Assembly (NCBI GenBank): GCA_963674755.2
Contig: CAXXVS010000003.1
Coordinates: 2,464,001 to 2,528,000, forward strand
DNA length: 64,000 nt
Source of the DNA: Desulfobacterales bacterium
Lineage (GTDB): Bacteria > Desulfobacterota > Desulfobacteria > Desulfobacterales > UBA5852
Direction of reading: 5' to 3'
The position numbers and the translations under genes were made by a program. Shown here one piece after another: positions 6,823 through 26,999 of the stretch; position 1 is the stretch's first letter; each line of letters begins with the position of its first letter. Under the pieces are notes generated by a model. It did not search any database. It saw only the letters and a list, made by a program, of their open reading frames with translations, and had not been told where the DNA came from.

Positions 6823-6965
6823 GGCGTGACATTTTACAACCAGGCCGATTTATGGTAGCCAAACTGTATACATCCCTTGCAGTTCAGCCGGCCTGTTATC
6901 CCGCTTATTCGGGTGCGCTTCCTGCGCACTTCTTCGAACCATACACGATGCAGCTTATAGAACAT
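6823..6965 (+). repeat. attI-upstream leader, duplicated at 26695-26837
   Basis: 143 bp ungapped alignment with 6 mismatches by manual comparison. Confidence 0.9.
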
Positions 6966-7022
6966 TATTGTGTTCTATAAATCCGATACAAAATCGTAAT
7001 GTTCTATAATACTATGTTATCT
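6955..7022 (+). other. attI-like integron recombination site, copy 1
   Basis: CTATAAT-ACTAT-GTTATCT has the 7+5+7 L-box/spacer/R-box layout of attI sites. GTTATCTG is complementary to CAGATAAC closing cassette 1. An upstream TATAGAAC..GTTCTATA palindrome is present. Confidence 0.72.
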
Positions 7023-7032
7023 GTAAATTATT

Positions 7033-7335
7033 ATGAGTGAACTCCAAGATATTTTAAATGTGGTATCCCAAGTTTGTTTGGTTGTTTTTTCAATTACCAC
7101 CGTAATAATGCTTTTTTACCTCAAAAAGCATGGGTATTCGCCTGAAGGGGTACATGTAAAACATAAATTTGATTTTAATTTAGATTTGCGGATTTTTGGT
7201 GATTTACGGAAGGGGTATCAAATCTTAAAAGATAATTCGATAATTCCAAGGATTAATTGCATAAGCATGTATCTTGGTATTTTTTGTGTGGTAACATATT
7301 TCATTATCACTGTGTGCAGTGAAGCAATGAGATAA
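7033..7335 (+). CDS. Hypothetical membrane protein (cassette 1)
   Basis: Two hydrophobic segments; fills the attI-attC interval. Confidence 0.75.
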   Translation: MSELQDILNVVSQVCLVVFSITTVIMLFYLKKHGYSPEGVHVKHKFDFNLDLRIFGDLRKGYQILKDNSIIPRINCISMYLGIFCVVTYFIITVCSEAMR

Positions 7336-7346
7336 TTAAACCGTTC

Positions 7347-7414
7347 AGATAACCTGCGGCTGTATTGGATGCGGACCACTTCGCGGCCCACACCAATAAG
7401 CCTAATCGTTAGGC
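7347..7414 (+). other. attC site 1
   Basis: AGATAAC...GTTAGGC with an internal imperfect palindrome. Confidence 0.85.
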
Positions 7415-7426
7415 ATCAGGATAAAT

Positions 7427-8143
7427 ATGTTTGAAGAAGTAGCTCGTCCTGTCCTCTATGAGTCTGAAGATGATAAGTTTACTTACTGGGGCAAAGGGTC
7501 ATCAGTACTCATTGGCACATCTAAACATTTTTATTGGGTAACGGCAGAGCATGTTATTAGAAATTTAGGCGGTGATACAGACTCTCTTAGAATATTTCCG
7601 TCTAATAAATCGAAAATCTCAATTCCATTTAACGAGAAATATCAAATTGTACTAGATCAAAGTGAGGACGAAGAATTTAAGGACATTTTTGCACTACGAA
7701 TAGACTTGGAGCTGTTCAAAGAAAAAGGAGATGCACCTCTATATGTTCAAGATATTGAGAACGGTGCATTTATTGCTGAAAATTTAAATTTAGGGGCATG
7801 TCTTTTAGTGATTGGTTTTCCATCTGAAATTCAATCGATAAACTATGATGAACTCAAAATCAAACACAAAAGGAGTTGGTTACCAGCAAGGTATATAGGG
7901 CAAAGTATAAGCGATCATTGTCATCAACTTCGTTTTTCTGATTCTGTTGAAATCGCAGATTATGATGGATTAAGTGGATCGCCTGTATTCTATAAAAAGG
8001 AGGCGCCTTATGTAAACGGCCAAAAAGCTATCATTCCCTTATTTGCAGGCCTATTGCTAAGAGGTAATGCTACAAACAAAATAGCACATTTTGTGAGCTC
8101 AAATGTTATAAAAAACCTCATACATAAGGCGGAAATTGCCTAA
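7427..8143 (+). CDS. Trypsin-like serine protease family protein (cassette 2)
   Basis: VTAEHV, DIFAL and GLSGSPV match the His/Asp/Ser triad motifs; the stop codon lies in the attC R'' box. Confidence 0.75.
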   Translation: MFEEVARPVLYESEDDKFTYWGKGSSVLIGTSKHFYWVTAEHVIRNLGGDTDSLRIFPSNKSKISIPFNEKYQIVLDQSEDEEFKDIFALRIDLELFKEKGDAPLYVQDIENGAFIAENLNLGACLLVIGFPSEIQSINYDELKIKHKRSWLPARYIGQSISDHCHQLRFSDSVEIADYDGLSGSPVFYKKEAPYVNGQKAIIPLFAGLLLRGNATNKIAHFVSSNVIKNLIHKAEIA

Positions 8144-8204
8144 CATTTTGCTGTACCAGATTCGGGCCAAAAAGCGGCCCTCTCTGGTGAGTAATGCGTT
8201 ATGT
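8138..8204 (+). other. attC site 2
   Basis: GCCTAAC (complement of the cassette start GTTAGGC)...GTTATGT. Confidence 0.88.
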
Positions 8205-8252
8205 TTTTGGGAATCATCATTAAAATTTTATCGAATAGCTAAAGGAATGAAG

Positions 8253-8993
8253 ATGAAAATAAAGGCCGCAATACTCATAATTGGATCACTCCTGTGGGAT
8301 TCTGATCAAGGAAATGACAAAGGTGCGCGGAAAAAATGGAGAAGTGCCAGGCTGAAAATGGAAGATAGGGTACATGTTAAGGCGCCAATCCGCTACGGTA
8401 GGTTTTCAGGAAGCCAGTCTAATCGACATTTCACCATGGTTTTCTCAACAGAATGTGAAGAACAAAATATATTTGGAACAGCATTTGTTGTTCCTTTCAA
8501 ACGGGAAACGATAAGGTCATTCAAGGGGATCGAAAACCAAGCAAGATTTCTTTCAAAAGCTGAAGGAAAATCGGACGAAAAGCTTTGTAAAGGAAATAAT
8601 GATAGCTGGTGCACAATTGGTGCAATTCTGAATCCAAAATTTGATAAAAAGTTGAAATTAAAATTTTTGACCTTCTGGAATGATTTGCTCAAAAAAGACG
8701 GATGGTTAAAAGATATTGATAAATACAAAATCGGTACTGAAAAATCAGTCTTGTCAGAATTCGGCGAAATCAAAATTGATTGGCCTAAAGCGATTGCTGA
8801 GAATGATCAAAAAATAATCGACAATATTGATATTGTTCTTGCAACATGCACCAAGCCAAACATCGATACTTATCCGAGTATAGAAGATCTCCGAAAAGAT
8901 ATAAATGCTGACAGCAGAAAATATTTTTTCAAAAATATTGAAAATGGAATAACTACTTTTCAAGACAGAGAAATATTGCATGCAGAAACATAA
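8253..8993 (+). CDS. Hypothetical protein (cassette 3)
   Basis: ATG after an AAGGA RBS. N-terminal IIGSLLWD weakly recalls gamma-glutamylcyclotransferase-like folds. Stop lies in the attC. Confidence 0.7.
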   Translation: MKIKAAILIIGSLLWDSDQGNDKGARKKWRSARLKMEDRVHVKAPIRYGRFSGSQSNRHFTMVFSTECEEQNIFGTAFVVPFKRETIRSFKGIENQARFLSKAEGKSDEKLCKGNNDSWCTIGAILNPKFDKKLKLKFLTFWNDLLKKDGWLKDIDKYKIGTEKSVLSEFGEIKIDWPKAIAENDQKIIDNIDIVLATCTKPNIDTYPSIEDLRKDINADSRKYFFKNIENGITTFQDREILHAET

Positions 8994-9061
8994 CAAGGCA
9001 AATTAACTCGGATGCAAATTCCGCTGCGCTACATTTGCACCGGTTATTTGCGACGTTATAT
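8988..9061 (+). other. attC site 3
   Basis: ACATAAC...GTTATAT with an internal TGCAAAT..ATTTGCA stem. Confidence 0.88.
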
Positions 9062-9099
9062 GCCATGAAAATGTCCCTTAATTTGATTCACTATTATGT

Positions 9100-10452
9100 G
9101 TGATGAAAAATCTATTTTACCCAGTTGTAGCGGAAGACAAACTTAATCCAGATTTTAAAAAAATATCAAGTTGGCCGGGAGCTGAACCTGGCCGTTTGAT
9201 GACAAATTATATTTTCCAAAATTACAATGACAAAGATGGAAACTTCATAGAGCAATTTCAGACCACTGGTTTTGACGCCCGGATCTTTGAATTATATTTA
9301 TTCGCCCTTTTTTCGAATTCTGGATACGAAATAATCCCAGACTATGCACGACCAGATTTTTTAATAAAGAAGGATGATATAACTGTTGCTATAGAAGCTA
9401 CTACCGTAAATCCATCATACGGAAAAAACAAAACGGATATTGAGGCCAAAATTACTCCTGATAACGTAGAAATAAAACACGATCATGAGCTTCCAATAAA
9501 ATTTGGTAGCCCGCTTTTCTCTAAACTTAATAAAAAATATTGGGAACTTGAACATTGTAAAAATATCCCGATTGTTTTTGCAATTGAAGCTTTTCATGAA
9601 AAAAACTCTTTCATATATTCTGACCATGGAATTGCACAGTATTTGTTTGGCCTTAAAGATACTCACAAGAGAGATAAAAATGGAAATTTAATTATTGATT
9701 ATGAGGAAATTATTGACCACCAGTTTCAAGAAAAAACTATCCCTTCCAATTTTTTTGCTCAACCATGCGCTGAATATATTAGCGCTGTTGTATTCACTAA
9801 TAGTGGCACTTGGCCAAAATTTAGCAGGATGGGATATCAGGCAGGTTACCATCGCGGCAATATAATGATGATTCGTCAAGGTACATGCTACCATGATGAC
9901 CGTAATTCTGTTTCCCCGCTAATTTTTCAATATAATCTCGATGATCCTGTAGTTGATGAAACTTGGGAACAGGGCCTTGTTGTAATGCATAATCCAAATG
10001 CTTTATACCCATTGCCTCGTTATTTTCTTAAGTGTTCTGCAGTACATTTTTTTGAGGATTCAAAAGTAAAAACGGAGTGCCTTCCATTCCACCCATTCGG
10101 TTCGACAACTATAAATTCTTTACTTGAGGATGCGCATAAAGCTATTACTGTGGATATAAATCCAAATATCGTAAGCCTACTTAAAAGTGAGTTCGAAAAT
10201 TATAAATTTGAAAGAATGCCTGGACCAGACAGTGTGACTGAGGAAAAAGAATGGTTTTCTGATAGAAACAATAATATTTTAGGGATTGTTTTCAGGGATA
10301 AAATAGATAATGATTACGGGTACCTTGTGTTAGGTAAAAATGAAAACGATTTTTTTTCTACAATTGATGTTGAGATTAATTTTGAGGACCGTAGTACCGC
10401 TAGGAATGAGCTATATATATCCATGGAAAAACACTTGAACAATAGCATATAA
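9100..10452 (+). CDS. Hypothetical protein with a PD-(D/E)xK-like motif (cassette 4)
   Basis: 450 aa; GNFIEQFQTTGFDARIFELYLF followed by RPDF...IEAT. Cassette boundaries GTTATATGC / GCATATA match. Confidence 0.7.
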   Translation: MMKNLFYPVVAEDKLNPDFKKISSWPGAEPGRLMTNYIFQNYNDKDGNFIEQFQTTGFDARIFELYLFALFSNSGYEIIPDYARPDFLIKKDDITVAIEATTVNPSYGKNKTDIEAKITPDNVEIKHDHELPIKFGSPLFSKLNKKYWELEHCKNIPIVFAIEAFHEKNSFIYSDHGIAQYLFGLKDTHKRDKNGNLIIDYEEIIDHQFQEKTIPSNFFAQPCAEYISAVVFTNSGTWPKFSRMGYQAGYHRGNIMMIRQGTCYHDDRNSVSPLIFQYNLDDPVVDETWEQGLVVMHNPNALYPLPRYFLKCSAVHFFEDSKVKTECLPFHPFGSTTINSLLEDAHKAITVDINPNIVSLLKSEFENYKFERMPGPDSVTEEKEWFSDRNNNILGIVFRDKIDNDYGYLVLGKNENDFFSTIDVEINFEDRSTARNELYISMEKHLNNSI

Positions 10453-10570
10453 TCGGGTAGCCGGGGGTTTTTCTCCCCCAGCCCCCACACCACCTATCAA
10501 GCGGGTCCGCACTAGGCGGTTCACAGAGCCTACTGGGCCGTAGCCGGGTAATGGATTTTCACCCATAGTT
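10452..10570 (-). mobile_element. 3' remnant of a group IIC-attC intron (end of IEP, domains V and VI) in attC site 4
   Basis: Minus strand encodes ...LWVKIHYPATAQ*, then GAACCGCCTAGTGCGGACCCGCTTGATAGGTGGTGTG (DV, CGC triad) and DVI ending CTACCCGAT. It is joined to TATATGC, i.e. at GT|TRRRY on the attC bottom strand. Confidence 0.82.
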
Positions 10571-10572
10571 AT

Positions 10573-10591
10573 GTGAGCCGAAGCGTTAGGG
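10573..10591 (+). other. Right arm of disrupted attC site 4
   Basis: GTGAGCCGAAGCGTTAGGG; GTTAGGGC is complementary to GCCCTAAC ending cassette 5. Confidence 0.7.
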
Positions 10592-10605
10592 CAGTAGGTA
10601 AAGAT

Positions 10606-11064
10606 ATGCAGGTAATGGACCCTAAGGCGAGGTATATTTGGAAACAAAACACGATACCAGTCCTCTTTAGAAGAATGAAGCCTGATCCCTTATTGGTGAA
10701 GCTTCCTTATGCTGTTGATAATTATGAATGGTTGCGAAATGACCACCACCATAAGCCAAAGTGGAATTCACAGTATAAAGCGTGGGAAACACCAATTTCT
10801 TGGTTTGATGATATAGTCCAAAGAACACTTAGCAGGTTTGGCAAATTATATGTGATACAAGCGTACAAAGAGCAGCAGAAATGTGCCCCGGCTTGTTGGA
10901 ATGCAAAAGGGTATCATTGTGAATGCTCCTGCATGGGAGAAAATCATGGTGTTGGACATCCCGGTGGAAGATGGCACGAAGTGGATGAAACCTTTGCATT
11001 TGAATGGGGACCTCTAAAATATGCGTGTAGGCTTATGTCAGCATCGAAAATAAAGAAGCCCTAA
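10606..11064 (+). CDS. Hypothetical protein with a Cys/His cluster (cassette 5)
   Basis: CAPAC...CECSCMGENHG is a possible metal-binding motif; stop lies in the attC. Confidence 0.75.
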   Translation: MQVMDPKARYIWKQNTIPVLFRRMKPDPLLVKLPYAVDNYEWLRNDHHHKPKWNSQYKAWETPISWFDDIVQRTLSRFGKLYVIQAYKEQQKCAPACWNAKGYHCECSCMGENHGVGHPGGRWHEVDETFAFEWGPLKYACRLMSASKIKKP

Positions 11065-11119
11065 CCGGTCGCTGGTGGGGACGGCGAGGGCCATGCCGCC
11101 CCACAGATCACCGTTGTGG
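11059..11119 (+). other. attC site 5
   Basis: CCCTAAC...CTGGTGGGG..CCCCACAG (extrahelical G)...GTTGTGG. Confidence 0.8.
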
Positions 11120-11140
11120 CCCATAGGCACCGTTAGTATT

Positions 11141-11202
11141 GGGGTCAATTCTGCCCATGACCCAATTAAATTTCAAGATGAGTCATGAGCAGATTTGACC
11201 CC
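11141..11202 (+). repeat. Palindromic element P1 (62 bp)
   Basis: GGGGTCAATTCTGCCCATGACCCA-ATTAAATTTCAAGA-TGAGTCATGAGCAGATTTGACCCC followed by AAGAA. Confidence 0.95.
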
Positions 11203-11285
11203 AAGAATTTAGCGGGTCATCATAACTCTCTGGCAAGCATGTAACTCAAAGTATTTATAGTATATTTTATTCCTCCCTAATATGT

Positions 11286-11318
11286 AAAAAGGGCTTCGGA
11301 ATAATTGCCGAAGCCCTT
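11286..11318 (-). terminator. Intrinsic terminator-like hairpin
   Basis: Minus strand AAGGGCTTCGG-CAATTATT-CCGAAGCCCTTTTT. Confidence 0.6.
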
Positions 11319-11627
11319 ATATAGTCGTTTGACAAAATTTCCCGAAGCCCCAGGGGTTTCGGAATCTTGCTATCTGGAATGGTAATGTAATGGTGCTGTC
11401 TCAAGACACTGGGGGGGGACCGCCTCGAATGATTTCTGTGTTAAGGATGGATAAAACCGGCAAATCTGTCAAAACGGTTTGGAATTTTGGACGATAGTGG
11501 CCGTCGGAGATGGTTTTATGATGGGTTGTACTTTACAGGTGAAAATTTTTAGAGTTAAATACTTAATAGTATTGCGGTGTTAAAAGTAGAATATCCACAT
11601 AATAATTAATATACTCCCCAAATAAAG

Positions 11628-12686
11628 ATGAAATTCAAATTTACCAAGGATTGGAAGCATTTTGAGAGAGTCGTTGCTGCGATTCATTCTGCTGAAATGG
11701 CTGGTGCAAATGTATTGTTAAATGAAAAAATAAAGGGGCGAGAGTTCGATGTTTCAATTCGTTTTAAAAATGGCCCTCACAGTTACTTAACACTAATCGA
11801 ATGCAAAAAGTATAGCAACCCAATACCGGTAGAGAAAGTTGAAGCCTTCATTACTAAAAGTTCAGATGCAGGGGCAAACAAATCAATTATGTTTTCGAGC
11901 AGCGGCTTTCAATCTGGAGCAATTACTGCTGCAACTCGACACGGCATTGATCTTTATACAGTATATGGAAAAATTAAAATACCTGATGAAATAAAAGCAG
12001 GTGGGGAAACTGAGGCACTTAATGTTCGTGATATCATTTTCACCATAGGCGGTTCCGATTATCATTTTCCTTTGGAAGATGGTAAAATGGAATATCACGC
12101 TAAAAAATCATTTCTAACACATGGCGCAGAAAAAGTTACGGTAAATGAATTTCTTGAAGCTCGAAGTCACGAGTTATTTAAACTAAGCTCCGACACCGAA
12201 AAAGAAAAAGTTTATAATCAACCACCAGGAGTAAGATTAACAGCTCCAAATATGATTGAAAATGGTGAGGTTCAGAAAATAACGATATGCTACAAGAAGA
12301 TGAAATTAGTAAACTTAAAACCTGGAACACCTGTAATGGACCACCATTTATTTGAAAAAATGGTTACTTATTACTGTATGAAAAATGAAGTTACAGGTGA
12401 AGAATCAACAATTATGGCATTAAGTGTTCACCTTGGGTTCGACACAAAAATCCAAAAGGGTAAATTCTACAGCAATCCAAATCTTGGAAATAGTTATTAC
12501 ATTGAAAGCATTAAAGATGGCATTGCTAAAATCTACCTATTGGAGAGCTATAGTATGGGAAATTTGGTACAAGCAGTTTATATGCAAAGCATTAAATATC
12601 AGTATCAATTTGTTTTGATTTCAGATCTTCGTGAGGTTTCTCGGTTATCGAAACTATATTCGAAAATGAAAGAGAAGGAAAGGTGA
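11628..12686 (+). CDS. Restriction endonuclease-like protein (Mrr_cat-type N-terminal domain)
   Basis: FERVVAAI...REFDV...LIECKKY...SSSGFQSGA motif pattern. Confidence 0.8.
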   Translation: MKFKFTKDWKHFERVVAAIHSAEMAGANVLLNEKIKGREFDVSIRFKNGPHSYLTLIECKKYSNPIPVEKVEAFITKSSDAGANKSIMFSSSGFQSGAITAATRHGIDLYTVYGKIKIPDEIKAGGETEALNVRDIIFTIGGSDYHFPLEDGKMEYHAKKSFLTHGAEKVTVNEFLEARSHELFKLSSDTEKEKVYNQPPGVRLTAPNMIENGEVQKITICYKKMKLVNLKPGTPVMDHHLFEKMVTYYCMKNEVTGEESTIMALSVHLGFDTKIQKGKFYSNPNLGNSYYIESIKDGIAKIYLLESYSMGNLVQAVYMQSIKYQYQFVLISDLREVSRLSKLYSKMKEKER

Positions 12687-12737
12687 TCAAGGCGCTGCTG
12701 CTAATTCTAACTTCCCACTGGTTCTCGGGGGGTAACC

Positions 12738-12826
12738 GAGTCAGACCAATTCAACTAATAGATATCACATATGATACGCTCTTAAATCGCCCTAAAATGC
12801 CCCTATAACCGCATTTTTGACATCAG
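12738..12826 (+). mobile_element. Orphan left-end/leader fragment of the RAYT-like element
   Basis: GAGTCAGACCAATTCAACTA..GATAT..TGATACGCTCT.AAATC..ATAAC.GCATTTTTGAC aligns with 23613-23700; cut off by palindrome P2. Confidence 0.7.
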
Positions 12827-12834
12827 GAAATATT

Positions 12835-12896
12835 GGGGTCAAGTCTGCCCATGACCCAATTAAATTTCAAGATGAGTCATGAGCAGACATGACCCC
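12835..12896 (+). repeat. Palindromic element P2 (62 bp)
   Basis: Same family and orientation as P1. Confidence 0.95.
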
Positions 12897-12984
12897 AAGA
12901 AGGACATTTCCTGATAGACCTTTCGGTGAATAAGAGGCATAAAATAGAGGAGTTATTGGAAAAGATCGATGAATTTGAATTGAT

Positions 12985-13047
12985 GGTTATAGAACATTTT
13001 GTGTTCTATATTCCGCAATTGTAATGTTCTATAATACTATGTTAGCT
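12985..13047 (+). other. attI-like site, copy 2
   Basis: GGTTATAGAACATTTTGTGTTCTATA...ATGTTCTATAATACTATGTTAGCT; GTTAGCTT is complementary to AAGCTAAC closing the FRG cassette. Confidence 0.72.
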
Positions 13048-13063
13048 TCTGGACTTGATTCGT

Positions 13064-13789
13064 ATGAAATCTTCTAAAATATCATCATTTTCAGGTTTTG
13101 AACGAATTCTCGAAAGAGAGAGTCATGCTTATATGTGGAGAGGTGTTTCAAAAAAAGAATATAAACTTATTCCTAAAGTTGCGAGAGATTGGCATTTAGG
13201 GCCTGAATTATTAAAATTGGCTGAAAAACAGCTTCTTGATCATTTTAGAATCCGTGCCACTCCTTTTTGCCAATTTATTCCGCAAACAGATTGGGAGTGG
13301 CTTGCATTAGCACAACATCATGGTCTCCCCACTAGACTTATAGATTGGACATGCAATCCACTTGTTGCTCTTTATTTTGCGTGCCGTGAAAAATCACAAA
13401 ACGATGGCGTAGTCTATTTTGCAAAATGTATAAATGAAATAGACACTAAGGTCATTTTATCACCTTTTGATATTAAGGATGAAAGAAAGTGGAGCGCTCA
13501 ACATTTTAACAATAGGCTTTCTTCGCAAAATGCTCTTTTTACTCTTTCCGAAAATCCCACAGTTCCTTTTAACAACGGAATATTTCATCGCGCCATAATC
13601 AAAGGTTCTTCAAAAAGTGATATTCTTTCTAAGTTGAAGCAGTTTGGCATTCATCAAGGTACAATATTTCCTGGTTTTGAAGGTGTTGCTAAGTATGTCG
13701 AAGAAGAATTTTTCTTTTTTAAGGGAATGGATAAAGACAAGGCATTAAAGGCACTTGAAGAAAGCCTTGAAAATGACAAAAAAAGCTAA
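13064..13789 (+). CDS. FRG domain-containing protein (cassette)
   Basis: WRG...LAQHHGLPTRLIDWTCNPLVALYFAC...RLSSQNALF. Confidence 0.9.
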   Translation: MKSSKISSFSGFERILERESHAYMWRGVSKKEYKLIPKVARDWHLGPELLKLAEKQLLDHFRIRATPFCQFIPQTDWEWLALAQHHGLPTRLIDWTCNPLVALYFACREKSQNDGVVYFAKCINEIDTKVILSPFDIKDERKWSAQHFNNRLSSQNALFTLSENPTVPFNNGIFHRAIIKGSSKSDILSKLKQFGIHQGTIFPGFEGVAKYVEEEFFFFKGMDKDKALKALEESLENDKKS

Positions 13790-13855
13790 CCCCTTTCTTC
13801 ACCTGACCGGTGTTCCGCTGCGCTTCACACCGGCCAGGTGAGAAATACGTTAGAT
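13784..13855 (+). other. attC site 6
   Basis: AGCTAAC...TCACCTGACCGGTGT..ACACCGGCCAGGTGA...GTTAGAT. Confidence 0.9.
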
Positions 13856-13888
13856 TCCAGGAATTAAAATTATTGAGGGGGCGATATC

Positions 13889-13955
13889 GGGACGCCCTTT
13901 ATATTTTTACATTTGAAACGCCATTTCTGTATAAATATAAAAATATTAAGAGCCC
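13889..13955. repeat. AT-rich hairpin beginning GGGACGCCC (related palindrome type)
   Basis: Arms CTTTATATTTTTACATTT / AAATATAAAAATATTAAG pair at 16 of 18 positions. Confidence 0.55.
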
Positions 13956-14008
13956 TTAAGCCTCATTGACTGCCTGTGCGGAACTGCCGAACCACCGACG
14001 TAGAGGAC

Positions 14009-14071
14009 GCACCCAAGTCATCCAAAGGAAGCGTACAACGATGATAGAGGATGCTCGTGCTGCACTGCGAG
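14009..14071 (+). pseudogene. 5' fragment of a DNA alkylation repair (AlkD-like) gene truncated by P3
   Basis: 63 bp homologous to 32085-32147; encodes MIEDARAALR. Confidence 0.65.
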
Positions 14072-14082
14072 GAATGGGTAAT

Positions 14083-14144
14083 GGGGTCAAGTCTGCCCAT
14101 GACCCAATTAAATTTCAAGATGAGTCATGCGCAGACTTGACCCC
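14083..14144 (+). repeat. Palindromic element P3 (62 bp)
   Basis: Same family and orientation as P1. Confidence 0.95.
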
Positions 14145-14218
14145 TATAAATTAGCACTGTTGAGAGAGAAAGAAAGCGAGCTCTGATGCGTTTTTTACAC
14201 ATTGATATTATAAAAGGA

Positions 14219-14310
14219 AGCTAACAAAAGCATAAACGCGAGCGTTTTTCGCCGTTTCGTTCGCTTCGCGTTCTACACTTTGAAAAACAACGGTTATGCT
14301 GGTGTTAGTT
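14219..14310 (+). other. attC site 7 (its cassette is truncated upstream by P3)
   Basis: AGCTAAC-AAAAGCATAA...TTATGCTGGT-GTTAGTT. Confidence 0.8.
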
Positions 14311-14334
14311 TTCCAAATACATTGTGAGGAGATA

Positions 14335-15240
14335 ATGAAAATCATTATCAGACTTGCTATTTTGGAATTTTTACTATTTTCACTACTGTGTGCTTCTTCA
14401 ACAGTCGCTTGTACAATAATTTCAGCCAGTAATAGTAGAACGGTTCTCTTTGCAGGGAACCAAGACTGGTTTCCTGCTGAATCATATTTGGTTGTGGATA
14501 AAACAGGTAAATTTGGTGTAGTTTTTTTTGCCCACCCTGCTAAGTCATACGAACTAGTAATGATGAAGGGAATAAACGAAAAAGGATTAAGCTATGATTT
14601 TAACTGGATTCCGGCAGAAAAACTTATACCTCACCCTGAAAGATCTCCCCAATTTGAATGGGCATTAATCACACACATGAGGGATTCGTGTACAGTAGAC
14701 GAGATACTAAAAAAGCTATTAACATATAATTTTGGGAATTCAATAGACTATCAAATCCATTTTATCGATAAAGATGGAAATGCCGTAGTGTTATATCCTG
14801 GCATAAATGGTGAGTTGGCATATACACGGAAGCCTAAAGGAAATGGTTATTTAATTACAACTAATTTCAATCACGCAAGACGGGAGAAAACATCATGGTC
14901 GCCTTTGGATTATGTCTACTCATTTTTATTTGATGGAAAATATGAAACAGCTGATAATATGCTTTCAAACTTTATAGATCAGGATGATTTAACAGTTGAA
15001 AATATGGCATCAGTTTTAGATGCGACTCATCGCGACTCTTTGTTTGACACACGCTTCTCCATAAAAACGCTTTTTTCAACTGTAGTTGATCTTAAAAACA
15101 TGCAAATTTCACTATATTACAAACGCCAATTCGACAAACCTATTGTATTGGATATAAAACAAGAATTGGATAAAATTGATACCTATAAAAAAGTTTCTTT
15201 AGAAGAGGTGGTGTCAAAAGTAAGTAAAGAAAAAGAATAA
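14335..15240 (+). CDS. Secreted Ntn-hydrolase (choloylglycine hydrolase/C45-like; cassette)
   Basis: Signal peptide then CTIISAS..LFAGNQD, GINEKGL and TTNF; GAGGAG RBS. Confidence 0.8.
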   Translation: MKIIIRLAILEFLLFSLLCASSTVACTIISASNSRTVLFAGNQDWFPAESYLVVDKTGKFGVVFFAHPAKSYELVMMKGINEKGLSYDFNWIPAEKLIPHPERSPQFEWALITHMRDSCTVDEILKKLLTYNFGNSIDYQIHFIDKDGNAVVLYPGINGELAYTRKPKGNGYLITTNFNHARREKTSWSPLDYVYSFLFDGKYETADNMLSNFIDQDDLTVENMASVLDATHRDSLFDTRFSIKTLFSTVVDLKNMQISLYYKRQFDKPIVLDIKQELDKIDTYKKVSLEEVVSKVSKEKE

Positions 15241-15273
15241 TAATTTTTAATTCAAAAGTATAGCAACATCAAA

Positions 15274-15353
15274 AACAAACCCGGCGTTCAACATCGCTCC
15301 TACGTCGCTTGGACGTGGCAAACAGGGCCTCGCTAGTTAACTCTATGTTAGAA
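15274..15353 (+). other. attC site 8 (degenerate)
   Basis: AACAAAC (vs cassette start GTTAGTT)...GTTAGAA. Confidence 0.7.
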
Positions 15354-15413
15354 AGAGGGTAAGACAGCCTGTAAACAAAGGAACTGAAAATTAATTCTTA
15401 TAAAAACAATTCG

Positions 15414-17030
15414 TTGGTTGGCTTTGTCTTGCTGTGTTTAATCTTTGGATCGCATCAAGATTCTCTGATAGGCAGCCTGCGAGCAGAAAATCGTAATACA
15501 GCAGTTCCAAGTGTCGAGATTAAACCGGACAGTGTTCTGGGAGATGAAGAGGTGGTCATCAAGCTTTCCGGATTTAACCCCGATCAAGAAGTTACAGTAA
15601 AAGCGCAAGCCGGCAACTGGCGGTCCAAAGCTATATTTAAGGCCGATTCTTTGGGAAACGTGGATCTTTCAAAACAAGCCCCTATATCAGGGACTTATAG
15701 AGGGATTGATGGAATGGGGCTCATCTGGTCTTTAAAAAGAACAGATGAAAAAACTGTAGACCGGAAGCAAAAACCTTATAATGGTGACGTTTATAAGCTG
15801 CCGATTATCAGACTGGAAAAAAATTCCCGAGTTGCCAAAGCCGGGTTAAAGGAAAATGATGTGCTGGTTGCTATGGATGGGAAGCCAATCCAAAACCAGA
15901 AAGAATTGTTTAACAGGATCCAAAATCATCTTGAATCGGCTTTGAAATCCCAACAAGACGTAACCTTCAATATTAAGATCGAGCGAAATGGTCACCCCCT
16001 AACTTTGCCAATTATTGTTCATAAGGAAGACCTTTCAAAACGATGGTACAAGGGTGTCATACTAGGTTCAAGGTTAATAAGAATCTTCTTAATTGAGGCG
16101 GAAGTTGAAGGTAAGGTCGTGGCTTCCACGATCTTTAAACAATACGATGTCGCCGCGGATGTAACAGAATTAGCGGTACGAGAGAATGGCCTGGTCGGAT
16201 CATTGTTCAAACCTGGTTCACCAGGCCCTCATCCAGGTATCATCGTACTTGGAGGCGCTAGTGGCGGAATAATTTCGGCCTCATATGATGCAAAGATGTT
16301 GGCCTCTCACGGCTATGCGGCGCTGGCACTGGCCTATTTTGCCTATGAGGATTTGCCACCCCGACTGATAAATATTCCGTTGGAATATTTTGGAGATGCG
16401 ATTCAATGGATGGAAAACCACCCTGCTGTCACATCGAATAAAATTGGTGTATTAGGCAGATCCAAGGGAGGAGAATTAGCTCTCTTGCTTGGGGCCACCT
16501 TTCCGAAACTAAAAGCGGTCGTTGCTTATGTCCCCAGCCACGTTGTTTGGGGGGGTGGGAGGAATAAGAGTTCATGGACAATAAACGGTAAACCATTAGA
16601 CTTTGTTCCTCTCAGGCATATAGTGAAGTTGTATGAACATCCGCCCATAAGATTTACCCCCATGTTTTTACTTAGTCTTCAAAATACTTCTGCTGTGGAG
16701 AAAGCAGTAATTCCTGTGGAAAGAATTAATGGACCGGTGCTTTTAATTTCAGGAGAAGATGATCAAGCGTGGCCATCCACACTCATGTCAGAAATGGTGA
16801 TGAAAAGACTGTCCAGATTTAAACATCCTTTTCCATATCAACATTTGAGTTACGAAGGAGCGGGGCATATCATCATAAATCCATATTATCCGACAACGAT
16901 ACTACATGGCATCCATCCTATTTTTAAGTTTGATATTGCTTATGGCGGGAATCCTCAAGACAATGCGTTTGCTTGTAAAGATTCATGGCCCAAAGTATTA
17001 CAATTTTTAAAAAAGAGCTTTACTCCTTAG
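15414..17030 (+). CDS. Acyl-CoA thioesterase/BAAT-family alpha/beta hydrolase with an inserted PDZ domain (cassette)
   Basis: Nucleophile GRSKGGE, SGEDD and AGH; PDZ motif SRVAKAGLKENDVLVAMDGKPI. Start codon uncertain. Confidence 0.85.
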   Translation: MVGFVLLCLIFGSHQDSLIGSLRAENRNTAVPSVEIKPDSVLGDEEVVIKLSGFNPDQEVTVKAQAGNWRSKAIFKADSLGNVDLSKQAPISGTYRGIDGMGLIWSLKRTDEKTVDRKQKPYNGDVYKLPIIRLEKNSRVAKAGLKENDVLVAMDGKPIQNQKELFNRIQNHLESALKSQQDVTFNIKIERNGHPLTLPIIVHKEDLSKRWYKGVILGSRLIRIFLIEAEVEGKVVASTIFKQYDVAADVTELAVRENGLVGSLFKPGSPGPHPGIIVLGGASGGIISASYDAKMLASHGYAALALAYFAYEDLPPRLINIPLEYFGDAIQWMENHPAVTSNKIGVLGRSKGGELALLLGATFPKLKAVVAYVPSHVVWGGGRNKSSWTINGKPLDFVPLRHIVKLYEHPPIRFTPMFLLSLQNTSAVEKAVIPVERINGPVLLISGEDDQAWPSTLMSEMVMKRLSRFKHPFPYQHLSYEGAGHIIINPYYPTTILHGIHPIFKFDIAYGGNPQDNAFACKDSWPKVLQFLKKSFTP

Positions 17031-17135
17031 CAAAGTTATTTTGACCGTCAACCTGAAATAGGAGTTTATTTGGCTTCTAAATAAGGAGGCATGATACCTC
17101 AATAAAACAAGTCTCATTTCCCTTGATATTAATCT

Positions 17136-17257
17136 TTCTAACAAACACATCGAGGCGGACGGCAATAGCGTGCGGTGGTTTCTAAATTAATGGTTTTTGG
17201 TAAGCTCGTTGTTTCTTCAACTTCTGTCGAAGCCGCCGCTCATGTTCGGCGTTATGT
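17136..17257 (+). other. attC site 9 (long, 122 bp)
   Basis: TTCTAAC (complement of GTTAGAA)...GTTATGT. Confidence 0.82.
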
Positions 17258-17259
17258 GA

Positions 17260-17865
17260 GTGAACGAAAATATGAATATAGCTGAATTTTTAAAAAGCGG
17301 CGAGGAACCATTTCCAAATTCAGATTATGGTGATGGTTATAGATGTAGTGCAAATCTAAATGATGGCACATTTTTACCCTGTGTGATGATTAGAAAAAGT
17401 AAAAACTATGTCGATTTAGCCTGTCGCCGTTTTGAAGAAGAGAAGAAAGGTCAAGGTGTTTTTCGTAACAAGAAAAGTGCTTATAGAGATATTGTAAAAT
17501 CATTTGTTACTGGTGGGAACCTTGTAAATGATTACGACATAAAATCTGTAGAAAAGAGCCGTTTTGCTATACCTTTATCTTTATTAAAAAAGATTGAGGG
17601 TGAAACTGCAATGGGTTGGGCAGGTTTTGTACTTGAAATGAATGATGGGAAACTATTTTCATTTGGGACATCTTTTCATGTAGAGTTTTTTGATTTGCCA
17701 GATGGATATTCATTTGAGGATGTAAAGGCAGTTCACAATCACCCCTGTGTAGGAAAATCAGGTAAATTACTATCGATGAAACGCGGTAATAGTGAATTAA
17801 ATAATAATTATGCCCCTGACAGAGTATATCGAGAACGACCGTATTTTGTATGTTATATAGACTAA
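17260..17865 (+). CDS. Hypothetical protein (cassette)
   Basis: Fills the attC9-attC10 interval; no recognised motif. Confidence 0.75.
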   Translation: MNENMNIAEFLKSGEEPFPNSDYGDGYRCSANLNDGTFLPCVMIRKSKNYVDLACRRFEEEKKGQGVFRNKKSAYRDIVKSFVTGGNLVNDYDIKSVEKSRFAIPLSLLKKIEGETAMGWAGFVLEMNDGKLFSFGTSFHVEFFDLPDGYSFEDVKAVHNHPCVGKSGKLLSMKRGNSELNNNYAPDRVYRERPYFVCYID

Positions 17866-17868
17866 ATC

Positions 17869-17930
17869 ACATAACAAAGGCATTGTTAGCGACGGCAAAC
17901 AGCCGCCGCGCCACATGCCGGGCGTTCTAT
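17869..17930 (+). other. attC site 10
   Basis: ACATAAC-AAAGGCATTG...CATGCCGGGC-GTTCTAT. Confidence 0.85.
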
Positions 17931-18138
17931 AGGAATCTGGTAGGCAAATTTGGATAATCAAATCCTTTACAAATACAGGCCATATAATTGTCGGTCTTTA
18001 TCTATACTCAAAAATAGGGAGTTCTATTTTTCTGATCCAAAACACTTCAATGATCCTGTTGACTGCCAAGTCGGAATTTATAGTGCATTAAAATCGGCCG
18101 TTGAACTCGCACAAAAGGAAGATTCGACCGTAAAAGAT

Positions 18139-20028
18139 GATGGCCGCGTAAAAAATCAGGCGGCCAATTTGTAGCTTTCTGGATATCTTCCCGACGAATT
18201 TGTCCAAGCGAAGGCAAATTCCACCAGAGCGGCCTGTAAACGTTCTTTGACACGATAAACAGCAGTCGTAATACGGTGATCAAGGCCCGGATTACCCTCT
18301 GCGGCCTTCATTCTGGCCCTGCGAACCCGGGCCGCCCGTAGCAGATTGAGCCCGGTGGCCTTCATTTTGGCACAGAAGCGCACCGCCGGCATGCCCCGAA
18401 CCCGTAGCTTTTTGACCCCGGTGCGCCGATCATATTCGCTCATGGTGGCCTCCACACCGGCCCGCCAGCGATAGGTGTCAATGAAAGCCTCGCTTTTCTC
18501 GGCCTTGCGACGCACCGATAGGCGATATTGCTTTCCGCTGTAGCGCAGATAGTTCTTCTTTTTCCCAGGCTTGACCGGGCAATGACCCGCATGCGGACAT
18601 CCCTGGCAAAGCGTGGAATCGAAGGCCGCGCTGTAACAATCGGTTTTCTTCTTGTGCTTCACCTGCTCGGGAACGTGACCCGCCGGACAGGTCTCGACAT
18701 AGCCCTTGTCATTAAAGCTAAACGCCGTGAGCGGCTTGGACTCATTGCCCTTCTGGGTCGGGGCGACAAGGTCGACATCGGCCACTTGGGCCGTCTGGTG
18801 GTTACTGTCACTGCCGTACAAAGTGTCGGCGACCAACTGATCGGGCCCCACACCCCGGATCTTGGTATCGGCGATGGCCGGCACCACGGCCTCCGCATCG
18901 CTCTCGCAGGCGGGTTGAACTTCGACATGGGTAATCAGGTTAAGCGCCTGCTCTTTTTCATTGGCCTCTTCACTGCGGCTGAAGCTCTCCATGATCTGGA
19001 CCTGATAGCCCTGGCCCTTGTGGCCGCTGTAGGTGGCCTCCGGGTCCGAAGGGTTTTGCAATGAGTCGGAGGGGATCTCGGCCGGCTTCTTTATCGTTAC
19101 TTGGGGGGCACCGGCGGCATCGGTCTCGACATGGCATTGATCGGCGAGCACCCGCTGCATGAGCTTGTAGCTGTGCATGAAAGCCACCGCCGTTTGGTCC
19201 TTGAAGCCCTCGATCAGATCGAACAGATCATTGCTGACCCGTTTTAACGTCTTTTCCGATTCCGTGGGTTTAACCAGAGAAAAGGCGGATAGGGCCTTCT
19301 CACCCCAGTAACGATCAATCACATCAGAAGCGATCGTATCGAACAGCTCTCGGTGGTGGCGTTTGAGATTGACCAGGAACTTGGCGATCGTGCGGCTGAA
19401 AATGGCAATACGGCCCAGCCGGCGCATGTTGGAGCGGATGTGTACCGAGTCGATGCGCTGGTTGGAAGGATCTACACCGAACACTTTGGCCAATTTGTCG
19501 GTGAGCTTTTCGAACATGACCCCGTCAATGCCATTTTCGGCCATCAGCTGGCGGGTCGACCACAGGGTCTTTTCGCTGACGTATTTGGCCTCGTCGCTTT
19601 CTTCAGTGATGTCCAGAGCATAATGCCACTGGAGGTTGTAGGCCAGCTGCTCGACGGCCTCGACATCGTTTAAATCCATGGTTTGCTGGAAAAGCATCAC
19701 TCCCAGCAGGGTATGCAGTTCCTTGGTGGGCCGCCCTATGGCTTCAGTGAAGAAGGGTTTTAACAGATCGACGGGAAGTTCTCCGAGCAGATGCTGGCGG
19801 AACAACCCGGGCCAGCCCTCTTCGAGCATCCGGCGCCGTTTGGGGCTCAAATAGGCCCACGGGTCGAAGAGATGTTGCTGTTTGTGGTCTTTGATGCGAA
19901 GCATGCGATCTCCAGGATAACCATCTGTAATTGTTTGGTTTCCTGTAGCATGACGAGAAGAAAATGGCAAGCTGAAATTGGGCGTTTTGTTAAATAATTC
20001 AGGCGGATAGACTTTTTACGATGCCATC
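18139..20028 (-). mobile_element. Complete insertion sequence (IS1182-like), 1890 bp
   Basis: TIRs GATGGCCGCGTAAAAA / TTTTTACGATGCCATC; 6 bp target duplication AAAGAT at 18133-18138 and 20029-20034. Family assignment is from transposase size and motifs. Confidence 0.88.
18156..19904 (-). CDS. DDE transposase
   Basis: RIDSVHI, QNPSDPEATYSGHKGQGY, ADTLYGS, a Cys cluster and YRWRAGVEAT. Confidence 0.92.
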   Translation of the reverse strand: MLRIKDHKQQHLFDPWAYLSPKRRRMLEEGWPGLFRQHLLGELPVDLLKPFFTEAIGRPTKELHTLLGVMLFQQTMDLNDVEAVEQLAYNLQWHYALDITEESDEAKYVSEKTLWSTRQLMAENGIDGVMFEKLTDKLAKVFGVDPSNQRIDSVHIRSNMRRLGRIAIFSRTIAKFLVNLKRHHRELFDTIASDVIDRYWGEKALSAFSLVKPTESEKTLKRVSNDLFDLIEGFKDQTAVAFMHSYKLMQRVLADQCHVETDAAGAPQVTIKKPAEIPSDSLQNPSDPEATYSGHKGQGYQVQIMESFSRSEEANEKEQALNLITHVEVQPACESDAEAVVPAIADTKIRGVGPDQLVADTLYGSDSNHQTAQVADVDLVAPTQKGNESKPLTAFSFNDKGYVETCPAGHVPEQVKHKKKTDCYSAAFDSTLCQGCPHAGHCPVKPGKKKNYLRYSGKQYRLSVRRKAEKSEAFIDTYRWRAGVEATMSEYDRRTGVKKLRVRGMPAVRFCAKMKATGLNLLRAARVRRARMKAAEGNPGLDHRITTAVYRVKERLQAALVEFAFAWTNSSGRYPESYKLAA

Positions 20029-20599
20029 AAAGATAAGCTTCAGAAGTTAGGAAAGTTAGAAGATATATATGCCAAGATTGAAAATGACGTTAAACGATCA
20101 GCTGTATTCTCCCTCTCAAAAGAGGAAAATAATGTATTAATGTGGTCGCACTACACAGAGAGTCATACTGGTTTTTCATTAGGTTTTACTTTGTCCAAAT
20201 CATTTACCGAATATAATGAATCAAAAGCAATTATTGGTAAAAACGACGTCCACTATTCTGAAGATAATCCGTTTGTTGATTATTTTATTGAATTTGCAAA
20301 ATGTACTCAGCTACCTGAATGGAATGAATTCTGGGTATCGCTATTGTCAATGGGGTTAGTTGTCAAATCTAAAGCTTGGGAATATGAAAATGAGGTGCGA
20401 ATTATAAGAGGGAAGCCAGGCAAGGTTCAGTTTTCACCTTCTGAACTTAAAGTTGTAATTTTCGGGTTAAATTTGACACCCAAAAAAAGAATGAAGATAC
20501 GAAATATACTATCTGATCATGAATGGAGTCATGTACAAATAAAAGAAGTTATCAGAGAAGATGATGGTTTTAGGTTAAAGGTGGTAAATTGTTAAGGAA

Positions 20600-20659
20600 A
20601 TATAACCAGCGACTGCTCCCGACGCTCGTTCCTCGCGCCGGAGAGCAGCGACGTTCGAC
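20600..20659 (+). other. attC site 11
   Basis: ATATAAC...CTGCTCCCG..CCGGAGAGCAG...GTTCGAC. Confidence 0.82.
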
Positions 20660-20716
20660 TCCAACAAAGAATGTACAAAAAATCATTTGGGAATAGATAA
20701 CAATAATGGGCGTGAT

Positions 20717-20778
20717 GGGGTCAAGTCTGCCCATGACCCAATTAAATTTCAAGATGAGTCATGAGCAGACTTGACCCC
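20717..20778 (+). repeat. Palindromic element P4 (62 bp)
   Basis: Consensus copy. Confidence 0.95.
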
Positions 20779-20812
20779 AAGAACCTTTGATTCCTCGGAG
20801 AATAGTATAGAT

Positions 20813-23257: not shown

Positions 23258-23396
23258 TACTTAGGGGCCTAATGCGGGGACATATCGTTTAGTTCCGATT
23301 GCTACGCTTGACCAATTCCGCCAACCAATGCAGGCAATGGACACACAGTAAGCGTCGCGCTGCGGCAGGGTGCCGCAGTGGATTTGGGCGCGTAAT

Positions 23397-23499
23397 GGGG
23401 TCAAGTCTGCCCATGACCCAATTAAATTTCAAGATGAGTCATGAGCAGACTTGACCCCAAGAACTGACCCCTGACCCCAAGAACTGACCCCAAGAACTG
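23397..23499 (+). repeat. Palindromic element P5 (23397-23458) plus tandem stutter of its right end
   Basis: Consensus copy followed by AAGAAC-TGACCCC-TGACCCCAAGAAC-TGACCCCAAGAAC-TG. Confidence 0.95.
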
Positions 23500-23904: not shown

Positions 23905-23931
23905 TAAAGGAATAGGTTCATATGCAAAAAA

Positions 23932-24053
23932 GGGGTCAAGTCTACATTTGACTGTTACCTCATGATTTGGTGACATTGCAAGGGCGCACCAAAAAACCTT
24001 GTTAAAATTGGATTCCGTGAGGGAACCATCTCAAAGTCAAATGGACATGCTCC
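23932..24053. repeat. Related palindrome with a long loop
   Basis: GGGGTCAAGTCTACATTTGACT ... AGTCAAATGGACATGCTCC (degenerate right arm). Confidence 0.65.
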
Positions 24054-24057
24054 ATTA

Positions 24058-25449: not shown

Positions 25450-25478
25450 AGCGGCCTCCTGTGATAGGCGTTTTTAAA

Positions 25479-25526
25479 GTTGACCCCGTCAACATTGTGT
25501 ATAGGGCATGAAATTGACAGTGTCAA
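25479..25526. promoter_or_regulatory. Two putative TetR operators
   Basis: GTTGACCCCGTCAAC and TTGACAGTGTCAA palindromes between the divergent genes. Confidence 0.65.
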
Positions 25527-25591
25527 CATTAAATGTTAATCAATGACCAAAAAAGTGAAGATGGCGCGTCTGATTAACCGGGGGGGCAACA

Positions 25592-26251
25592 TTGGCAACC
25601 AAGAAAAGCTACCACCATGGCGATTTACGCAAAAAACTGCTGGCCACCGCCCTTGAAATTATATCTGAACATGGACTTGAAAAAGTGTCCATGCGGGGGC
25701 TTGGGCACCGCATAGGGGTGTCGAGAACCGCACCCTACCGGCACTTTGCCGATAAAAGCGCGCTGTTATGTGCCATCGCGGAACAGGGGCATCAAAAATT
25801 GACAGCAGTGCTGAAAAAAGCCAACCAGCAGCTTTCCGATGATCCGCTGACAAGACTTACCAATACCGGCATTGGCTATGTCGAATTCGCTGTTGCCAAC
25901 CCGGTCCATTACAGGATCATGTTCGGTAATGAGATCCTGGAAAATAAACGAACCTCCGAACTCGTCAACGCCGCTGAAACGTCATTTAATGAATTGCTCT
26001 ATGCAGTCAAGGCCTGTCAGGAAGAAAAGCTTATCAAACCAATCAACCCCTATATTATAGCCAACACACTGTGGTCATTGACGCATGGCATATCCATGCT
26101 TTTGATCGATGGACAGATTCAGTCGGCCAATGCGTTCCGAGGGATGCCGGCAATGCTTCAACCGGGTATTGAAGCAGGCAAGATCGATGTGCGAAAGATC
26201 TTTGAATATAAGAGTGATATTTTATTCACAGGTCTTATGGCAGATTCCTGA
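25592..26251 (+). CDS. TetR/AcrR-family regulator
   Basis: YHHGDLR..GVSRTAPYRHFADK HTH and a C-terminal WSLTHG motif. Confidence 0.92.
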   Translation: MATKKSYHHGDLRKKLLATALEIISEHGLEKVSMRGLGHRIGVSRTAPYRHFADKSALLCAIAEQGHQKLTAVLKKANQQLSDDPLTRLTNTGIGYVEFAVANPVHYRIMFGNEILENKRTSELVNAAETSFNELLYAVKACQEEKLIKPINPYIIANTLWSLTHGISMLLIDGQIQSANAFRGMPAMLQPGIEAGKIDVRKIFEYKSDILFTGLMADS

Positions 26252-26266
26252 TGGCGCAATAATAAT

Positions 26267-26331
26267 GGGGGCAAGTCTGCGATAGCTTCCCATATGAAAA
26301 CCTATAAATTGAAAAGAGAAGACGACACCCC
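26267..26331. repeat. Degenerate related palindrome
   Basis: TAAT-GGGGGCAAGTCTGC ... AGACGACACCCC. Confidence 0.5.
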
Positions 26332-26366
26332 ATTTTTTTGTGATCGAAAAAATTGGGCATAAGATT

Positions 26367-26499
26367 GATGGAACCGTAAAAAGTCGAATTTCCTGTTTAA
26401 TCGTCATTCCGGCGAAAGCCGGAATCTTTTGATATCAGTGAGTTATAGATTTCGGATCAAGTCCGGAATGACAGATAGAAGACTTTTTACGAAACCACA
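26367..26499. mobile_element. MITE with ends resembling the IS1182-like element
   Basis: GATGGAACCGTAAAAAGTC / GACTTTTTACGAAACCA; internal GTCATTCCGGCGAAAGCCGGAATC...TCCGGAATGAC REP-like doublet. Confidence 0.72.
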
Positions 26500-26622
26500 C
26501 TCTTGTCCAAAAACGGGATCAAATGGAAGTAATCTAACAAAATCTTGAAAAAAAGCCCCCTTGTGAGGCATGGTTTAGCTGCGAGGAAAAACCGATAGCC
26601 AACAACAGGGAGGCAAAATAAT

Positions 26623-26684
26623 GGGGTCAAGTCTGCCCATGACCCAATTAAATTTCAAGATGAGTCATGAGCAGACTTGACCCC
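26623..26684 (+). repeat. Palindromic element P6 (62 bp)
   Basis: Consensus copy. Confidence 0.95.
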
Positions 26685-26694
26685 AAGAATCTCT

Positions 26695-26999
26695 GGCGTG
26701 GCGTTTTACAAGCAGGCCGATTTATGGTAGCCAAACTGTATACATCCCTTGCAGTTCAGCCGGCCTGTTATCCCGCATATTCGGGTGCGCTTCCTGCGCA
26801 CTTCTTCGAAATATACACGATGCAGCTTATAGAACATCGCTGCTGTTCTATAACACCGTTTCAAAATAGCCTATTTGGTGGATAAGAGAAATAAAACAGA
26901 GGGTTTATTGGAAAAGGATCATAAAGATAAATTGATGGTTATAGAACATTTTACGTTCTATAAGCCGCAATCGGAATGTTCTATAATACTATGTTATAT
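26695..26999 (+). other. attI-like site, copy 3, with its full leader
   Basis: 26695-26837 matches 6823-6965 and about 26865-26999 matches 12915-13047. Ends CTATAAT-ACTAT-GTTATAT. Confidence 0.75.

Follow-up and report, generated by a model that had tools for sequence, protein, structure and literature searches.

The window described here is the whole 64,000-nt stretch of contig CAXXVS010000003.1 from a Desulfobacterales genome (G000 below), and all bare coordinates are window positions; C1, C2 and C3 are contigs of that genome. The window region holds a cassette array with 11 attC-type sites and two insertion sequence (IS) transposases, and a 63-bp hairpin is present there eight times, always in the same orientation; positions 7000-27000 are AT-rich, and the genome has a GC content of 58%. 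Our subject is a unit of about 300 bp, here called the platform, that occurs three times in this array and ends in an attI-type site. It consists of a leader (block A), palindrome 1, a spacer (block B), palindrome 2 and the attI core. Copy 3 is the full form, copy 1 lacks block B, and copies 2 and 4 (the latter outside the window) lack block A and palindrome 1. The window copies are laid out as follows:

6823..6955, + strand: leader (block A) of copy 1, with a promoter-like TTTACA-N14-TGGTAG (TTTACA at 6833-6838) and AGCCGG 67 nt before the palindrome
6956..6979, + strand: single palindrome of copy 1; block B is missing
6999..7019, + strand: attI core of copy 1 (L box CTATAAT, 5-bp spacer, R box), crossover G at 7016
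12897..13044, + strand: platform copy 2, with block B, palindrome 2 at 12988-13010 and core at 13024-13044, crossover G at 13041
26695..26996, + strand: platform copy 3, full, with TTTACA at 26705-26710, palindrome 1 at 26828-26852, block B, palindrome 2 at 26940-26962 and core at 26976-26996

The core is the 21-mer ATGTTCTATAATACTATGTTA, found at 6999, 13024 and 26976, always on the + strand and with 0 mismatches, which puts the crossover G at 7016, 13041 and 26993, as an initial annotation of this DNA had reported. The expected number of occurrences is 0, and 100 shuffles gave no match even when 3 mismatches were allowed. The same annotation had placed a palindrome before every copy, and TATAGAAC-N7-9-GTTCTATA is indeed present at 6956-6979, 12988-13010, 26828-26852 and 26940-26962, copy 3 proving to have both of the last two. 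In all four intact copies (4/4), the core reads L box CTATAAT, 5 bp (ACTAT) and then G|TT, and platform sequences diverge past the crossover G. An attI simple site has L and R boxes 4-5 bp apart (PMC12614218; the papers cited in this text were available in part, and what we attribute to them holds for those parts). The platform cores show this form, an L box followed at that distance by a GTT R box.

The R box of copy 1 (GTTATCT) is complementary to the R'' box AGATAAC of the attC at 7347, and that of copy 2 (GTTAGCT) to AGCTAAC of the attC at 13784, which bears out what had been claimed for the GTT boxes of these two copies. Among 11 platform sites in this and other genomes and metagenomes, the exact 7-base complement is found at five (copies 1, 2 and 4, L037 and L043). 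The L043 attC carries a mutated R' despite its exact R'' match, and L045 matches with one mismatch. By our estimate, agreement of the four variable letters at five sites is far beyond chance. Cassettes were inserted at the platform G|TT point. Judged by site form and R/R'' match, the three repeats are attI-type sites, and this part of the initial annotation stands.

The genome has four intact cores and three decayed copies, at seven loci. The fourth intact copy lies at C3:1419620 (crossover C3:1419637), and the decayed ones at C2:1405k, C3:159k and C3:2454k. Relatives were found in the congeneric genomes G384 and G232 (in the latter the leader only) and on five metagenome contigs, labels with L denoting contigs or loci from other data, metagenomes included. 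The metagenome pattern gave nine matches, of which five were retained (L037, L038, L043 = L044, L045); L039-L042 were dropped as unrelated simple repeats.

In eight aligned copies, the 12-bp core is 100% identical (8/8), which is the conservation seen within an attI class, and the palindrome-2 arms are 97-100% identical; identity falls to 46% in block A and 43% in block B. The outer arms of palindrome 2 covary, with three pairs changed on both sides and a score that none of 500 shuffles reached (a comparison that ignores kinship). Palindrome 1 lies 165-167 bp from the crossover in 4/4 full copies, and AGCCGG lies 65-69 nt from the palindrome in 6/7 copies and 61 nt in one decayed copy. Platform spacing is thus constant within 2-4 bp while the spacers are about 45% identical. 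L037 and L043, divergent platforms from separate metagenomes, have homologous first cassettes (a membrane-like protein of 150-153 aa). Two decayed platforms, L031:1495-2880 and the one at C3:159k (minus strand), have a common upstream flank. In place of a cassette both have a gene pair that we take to be of toxin-antitoxin type.

Within the window, 143 bp are common to copies 1 and 3 (96% identity) and 138 bp to copies 2 and 3 (80%), much as had been described. The 96% leader identity points to a fairly recent common origin of the leader part of copies 1 and 3. The notion of a module holds, as a conserved integrase-free unit is present at many loci; that modules were imported is not needed, and copying with reshuffling inside the lineage would account for the three copies.

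The platform was not found beyond the host genus in the class, order and phylum genomes searched. Searching 401 class genomes for a 20-mer (1 mismatch) led only to the source genome and to a single unrelated site preceding an ATPase gene, and the palindrome was absent from 400 other class genomes (0/400). A spaced 25-letter pattern (3 mismatches) had no match in 400 other phylum genomes and one in 300 other order genomes, namely G384. The platform pattern gave 0 matches on viral contigs and 0 on plasmids. Two exact 20-mer matches among genome contigs were discarded, both being unrelated AT-rich sequence.

No copy of the platform has a recombinase gene beside it, and the geometry is conserved across very divergent copies. 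The absence of an integrase from the locus, reported earlier, is confirmed: none of the 33 window open reading frames (ORFs) included in the Pfam scan is a tyrosine recombinase, and none of the 17 PF00589 matches from a scan of the entire genome falls in the window. When 83 recombinases were compared by tblastn with 13 platform upstream regions, no recombinase or remnant was found (0/13; two of the regions are short, L037 with 535 bp and L038 with 120 bp), and both positive controls were recovered (2/2). In the class, IntI matches were obtained in 192/401 genomes. The initial annotation had looked to a divergent intI beside the motif in relatives. This was not borne out for any orientation, with the motif at 0/78 intI loci (70 from the class, 8 from the family) and a recombinase remnant at 0/13 platform loci. 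A complete integron has intI adjoining attI, and the platform lacks this arrangement. The claim that an integrase is encoded elsewhere fits one intact IntI at C2:2339253-2340482 (409 aa; TIGR02249, 415 bits), and four intI remnants lie elsewhere in the genome.

The integrons of the genus differ from the divergent layout that had been expected. At seven loci they have a co-oriented intI with attI downstream of it, in the order intI, palindrome, spacer and a core ATAAT-N6-G|TT, with a TGCAGCA-centred motif; their IntI is the 409-aa form with two N-terminal SAM-like stretches. Heads of this TGCAGCA class without intI occur in the source genome at C1:481k, C2:1562k, C3:616k, C3:693k and C3:2579k, and in three intI-less heads of the class an intI-type leader is joined straight to the palindrome with no intI frame (z = 6.5, 3.8 and 9.2). 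The platform leaders of copy 5 (z = 11.2) and L043 (z = 7.5) match the leader at C3:693k. The L037 leader agrees with an intI leader at 20/21 bases, and the leaders of L037, L043 and copy 5 are similar to those of co-oriented intI with z of 4.6-5.2.

These leaders bear on the idea that the platform belongs to a natively integrase-free class, which never had its own recombinase and whose TATAGAAC palindromes would be bound by a separate enzyme, either an IntI of another class or a tyrosine recombinase that is not an IntI. The strictly conserved geometry fits this idea, as does the lack of a remnant at 0/13 loci, whereas other head classes often retain remnants. Against it, heads of the co-oriented IntI class have the platform leader too, and no platform adjoins any of the 17 PF00589 matches, an intI remnant at a distance of about 10 kb from copy 4 being the nearest. 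At L037 and L038, moreover, a gene could lie upstream of the short flanks available. We regard a natively integrase-free class as quite improbable.

The cassettes of the array supply further evidence on how platforms move. The first block of the list below is bounded by two attC crossovers and contains platform copy 2.

7408..14303, + strand: block of 6,896 bp between two attC crossovers, with cassettes 2-5, an Mrr-type gene, platform copy 2 and the FRG cassette
7016..7414, + strand: first cassette, with a 100-aa ORF at 7033-7335 and an attC at 7347-7414, whose R'' complements the R box; crossover G at 7408
7408..11113, + strand: cassettes 2-5, with ORFs at 7427-8143, 8136-8993, 9100-10452 and 10573-11064
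8138, 8988, 10446 (interrupted) and 11058, + strand: attC sites of cassettes 2-5
13041..13855, + strand: FRG-domain cassette, with an ORF at 13055-13789 and an attC at 13784-13855
14219..14310, + strand: attC of a 5'-truncated cassette; crossover G at 14304, the far end of the joint in run X4
14304..20659, + strand: later cassettes, with ORFs at 14296-15240, 15414-17030 (BAAT-like) and 17260-17865 and attC sites at 15274, 17136, 17869 and 20600
Within the same stretch, + strand: DUF2971 cassette split by an IS at 18156-19970

Sequencing run X4 comes from a different study (P2). It contains a contig of 1,587 bp (depth 15.4) that covers 6992-7407 and 14304-15471 with 10 differing letters; the junction of 7407 and 14304 falls exactly on two attC GTT crossovers (5 letters in common). 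The 6,896 bp that include platform copy 2 are absent from it, and a contig of depth 2.4 in the same run still has copy 2. Given a joint placed exactly at attC crossovers, an IntI-type event probably removed or added the 6.9-kb block with copy 2. Read from the letters of the contig, the joint bears the mark of IntI acting on two attC sites, the strains compared being about 99% identical, in line with the earlier proposal that an integrase works on this array. From it we learn that an entire attI platform can be carried in a block with attC crossovers at its ends. Other apparent joints (6965, 6952 and 7003 to about 12980; 13044 and 7027 to 23392) were set aside as misplaced platform copies, because the aligned stretch had left out the core of copy 3.

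A second kind of boundary is set by the 63-bp hairpins, all on the same strand:

11140..11202, + strand: 63-bp element (an empty element of RAYT type, see below), copy 1 of 8 in the window
12834..12896, + strand: 63-bp element directly before platform copy 2
14082..14144, + strand: 63-bp element
20716..20778, + strand: 63-bp element
23396..23458, + strand: 63-bp element
26622..26684, + strand: 63-bp element directly before platform copy 3
27018..27075, + strand: shorter variant, 24 bp past the copy 3 crossover, truncating the first cassette
30332..30389, + strand: shorter variant

The hairpin ends match those of an intact gene of REP-associated tyrosine transposase (RAYT) type at C1:916346-917380 (Y1_Tnp and helix-turn-helix, Bac_DnaA_C), as a RAYT-dependent element would. 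The palindrome after which copies 2 and 3 had been said to begin is this hairpin, at 12834-12896 and 26622-26684. Copy 3 is flanked by hairpin elements on both sides, and its first cassette is cut off by the one 24 bp past the crossover. From the element end to the crossover there are 144 bp in copy 2 and 148 bp in copy 4, and palindrome 1 ends at 140 bp in full copies. In the genome, 14/16 full element copies lie at most 10 kb from an attC, against 5% of the genome. The hairpin may have a role in cutting or moving platforms.

The eight co-oriented hairpins (11140-30389) also split the region into modules, several of which hold non-cassette genes (Mrr-type, GNAT, FMN reductase/TetR, methyltransferase). 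Short, partial tandem repeats stand behind some hairpin copies and also behind the intact RAYT on C1. Near the arrays, at 31979-32035 and 13878-13905, there are ends that belong to further families of RAYT-type hairpins.

Hairpins and IS might instead have piled up dead pieces here. In that case the platforms would be relics of heads that were loaded with a cis integrase, later lost, and the core would have been kept as a promoter or simply have not yet decayed. The genome holds many decayed heads and four intI remnants, cores have decayed at C2:1405k, C3:159k, C3:2454k and in G232, and in copies 2 and 4 the element ends close to where palindrome 1 would lie, as for element-adjacent deletions. 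Integrase loss is moreover an accepted source of cassette arrays of this kind (PMC4889954, PMC3607928). What speaks against relics is that the same leader-palindrome joint and spacing recur with different neighbours at about 45% spacer identity, which points to one spreading form. Both palindromes, the crossover spacer and the covarying arms are kept, more than a -10 box needs, and the X4 joint indicates IntI-type recombination between strains about 99% identical. Dead relics seem rather unlikely to us.

The promoter question touches a further alternative. The attI core includes a perfect TATAAT five bases before the crossover, and two dyads lie 112-114 bp apart in the platform. The motif could be a regulator-bound promoter, with the palindromes as operators, at whose GTT cassettes landed as at an attG hotspot; these two features would suit it, and IntI can insert cassettes at genome sites (10.1101/2022.09.11.507474). 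The dyad AGAAC-N7-GTTCT is found at just five places in the genome, three of them platforms; it is absent before lexA and recA, and a LexA-box or SOS promoter was rejected. The motif always heads AT-rich cassette-type DNA and never core genes, it has the L-5bp-R form of attI (PMC12614218), and the same design heads intact integrons of the genus. A regulator-bound promoter is thus a very improbable account of the site.

We lean towards reading the platforms as integrase-free heads of a co-oriented integron lineage that moved as passengers. The platform would descend from a co-oriented integron of the genus, with leader, intI, palindrome, attI and cassettes on one strand. With the intI frame lost, the leader would have come to adjoin the attI region while a promoter facing the cassettes was retained, and the intI-less form would then have spread as a unit. 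Copies would cluster as passengers, copy 2 within multi-cassette blocks cut by IntI and copies 2 and 3 within segments bounded by RAYT-type elements; travel of this kind would explain three copies in one locus. Most likely, an IntI encoded elsewhere (the C2 gene) does the attC x attC work in trans.

Several results weigh against this passenger account. The X4 joint is a single contig from a single study and gives no direction of the event, and the contig leaves the region upstream of copy 1 unseen, so that a cis intI is possible there. Five of the 11 platform sites are without a matching attC (copy 3, L038, L032, copy 5 and C3:2454k), the cassette being cut off (copy 3), the core altered or no clear attC present. 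The hairpin enrichment does not represent 16 independent events, because 8/16 copies are in one window. No integrase was found with this attI class at the 78 intI loci, and the resident IntI has an attI whose palindrome differs and in which ATAAT is followed by a gap of 6 bp, not 5 bp. As attI sites are conserved within classes and divergent between them (PMC3146285), this class-specificity is the chief reason to doubt that the resident IntI serves the platforms. The leaders of copies 1 and 3 do not directly resemble intI leaders (z of 0.7 and 0.6), and a hidden Markov model of intI leaders does not find them; the link runs only via L043, L037, copy 5 and C3:693k, which makes descent from the co-oriented class likely but indirect. 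A conserved TTTACA-N14-TGGTAG stands at the start of 5/8 leaders examined, and sigma-70 consensus scans of the leaders call no promoter, the + strand of the copy 1 leader included. These scans do not show that the copies bring promoters, as the initial annotation had suggested they might.

A stronger version would have the platforms as a family of non-autonomous, integrase-free mini-integrons, selected units of about 300 bp with promoter and attI that spread to many chromosomal sites and, as cargo of multi-cassette circles and of RAYT-bounded segments, into arrays already present, and that still capture and express cassettes via a trans integrase. From the sequences compared here, we consider this possible and advance it tentatively. 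If true, a single integrase would serve entry points all over the genome as one network.

Integrons are usually taken to have one attI beside the integrase, and attC clusters that have no integron-integrase (CALINs) to be passive leftovers of open origin (PMC4889954, PMC3607928). Our array is a CALIN by definition (PMC4889954): it has 11 attC-type sites from 7347 to 20659, where at least two are required, with no intI nearby and the nearest intI matches far outside the window. Sites came from a home-made heuristic whose 4817 raw hits were reduced to 113, many of them false. As here, CALINs are possibly served by a distant IntI (PMC4889954), and there is one report of an attI heading a CALIN, as here, from a prophage of Shewanella (PMC9892861). 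In contrast to known CALINs, the head is a conserved unit of about 300 bp at seven loci of one genome and in other genomes, and three heads stand in one 20-kb array, two of them inside it and all unlike the attI of the resident IntI.

The integrons of the genus resemble the co-oriented ('inverted-integrase') integrons of Treponema, in which intI is transcribed toward attI and cassettes (PMC3607928). The platform differs in having no intI, and the available part of that paper assumes one attI per integron. [quoted passage not shown] Insertions at attG, seen as single attC sites lacking integron-integrases (SALINs) and small CALINs, likewise place cassettes at scattered chromosomal loci (10.1101/2022.09.11.507474), whereas the platform is a dedicated, conserved target and not a chance genomic site. 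REPINs (REP doublets forming hairpins) are RAYT-dependent non-autonomous elements (PMC3337134), and the 63-bp hairpin similarly shares its ends with a Y1_Tnp gene; unlike REPINs, it clusters in integron arrays and borders attI platforms. Our literature search, which covered few subscription papers and no supplements, turned up no description of an integrase-free attI family with many copies and a conserved geometry.

A conserved multi-copy platform without integrase offers a concrete route for the origin and continued usability of CALINs, and internal attI heads would allow expression or replacement of cassettes far down an array. Integrase-free modules suggest that a bacterium could scatter cassette entry points while the enzyme is encoded elsewhere. 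Standard searches miss platforms because IntegronFinder, as the available part of its description has it, cannot seek unknown attI sites (PMC4889954). Among the cassette genes, 9100-10452 is PD-T7-1-like (E 3.5e-138) and 7427-8143 matches LmuA/HamA weakly; the anti-phage models PDC-S15 and PDC-S31 were also matched (7427-8143, 9100-10452, 13055-13789, 20140-20595). With several cassettes resembling anti-phage genes (PD-T7-1-like, FRG, DUF2971), more entry points could widen the defence store.

The attC at 13784-13855 is 87% identical to an attC in the C2 array with the intact IntI, and a second window attC reaches 81%; such sharing of attC types with that array favours the passenger reading. 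The attC of cassette 4 contains an insert at 10450-10575 with very high contig depth in all four runs compared. It resembles what we take to be the 3' end of a group II intron on the minus strand, and RF00029 does not call it; an Rfam scan of 6000-34000 gave one chance match only.

Heads of the TGCAGCA class were seen at about eight loci (C1:181k, 481k, 722k; C2:1562k, 2339k; C3:616k, 693k, 2579k), one of them with an intact intI, and two lie directly behind RAYT-type hairpin ends. A third class of heads ends in GGATGG|TTAGGC (C3:1409377-1409616, C1:756k, C3:2293k), and platform copy 4 sits inside a third-class array. One head of this class follows a 79-aa frame with an IntI-like start fused to an IntI C-terminus, an internally deleted intI. 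At L090, which comes from another family of bacteria, a short IntI is also co-oriented; one copy of a repeat stands just behind its stop codon and another precedes the attI core. In many members of the class (L083, L085, L086, L092, L095, L097, L132, L135 and L143), a gene that by eye we presume to be LexA-like seems to follow intI directly. At the right edge of the AT-rich region, 33568-35155 holds a gene pair coding for a HipB-like helix-turn-helix protein and a HipA-like protein.

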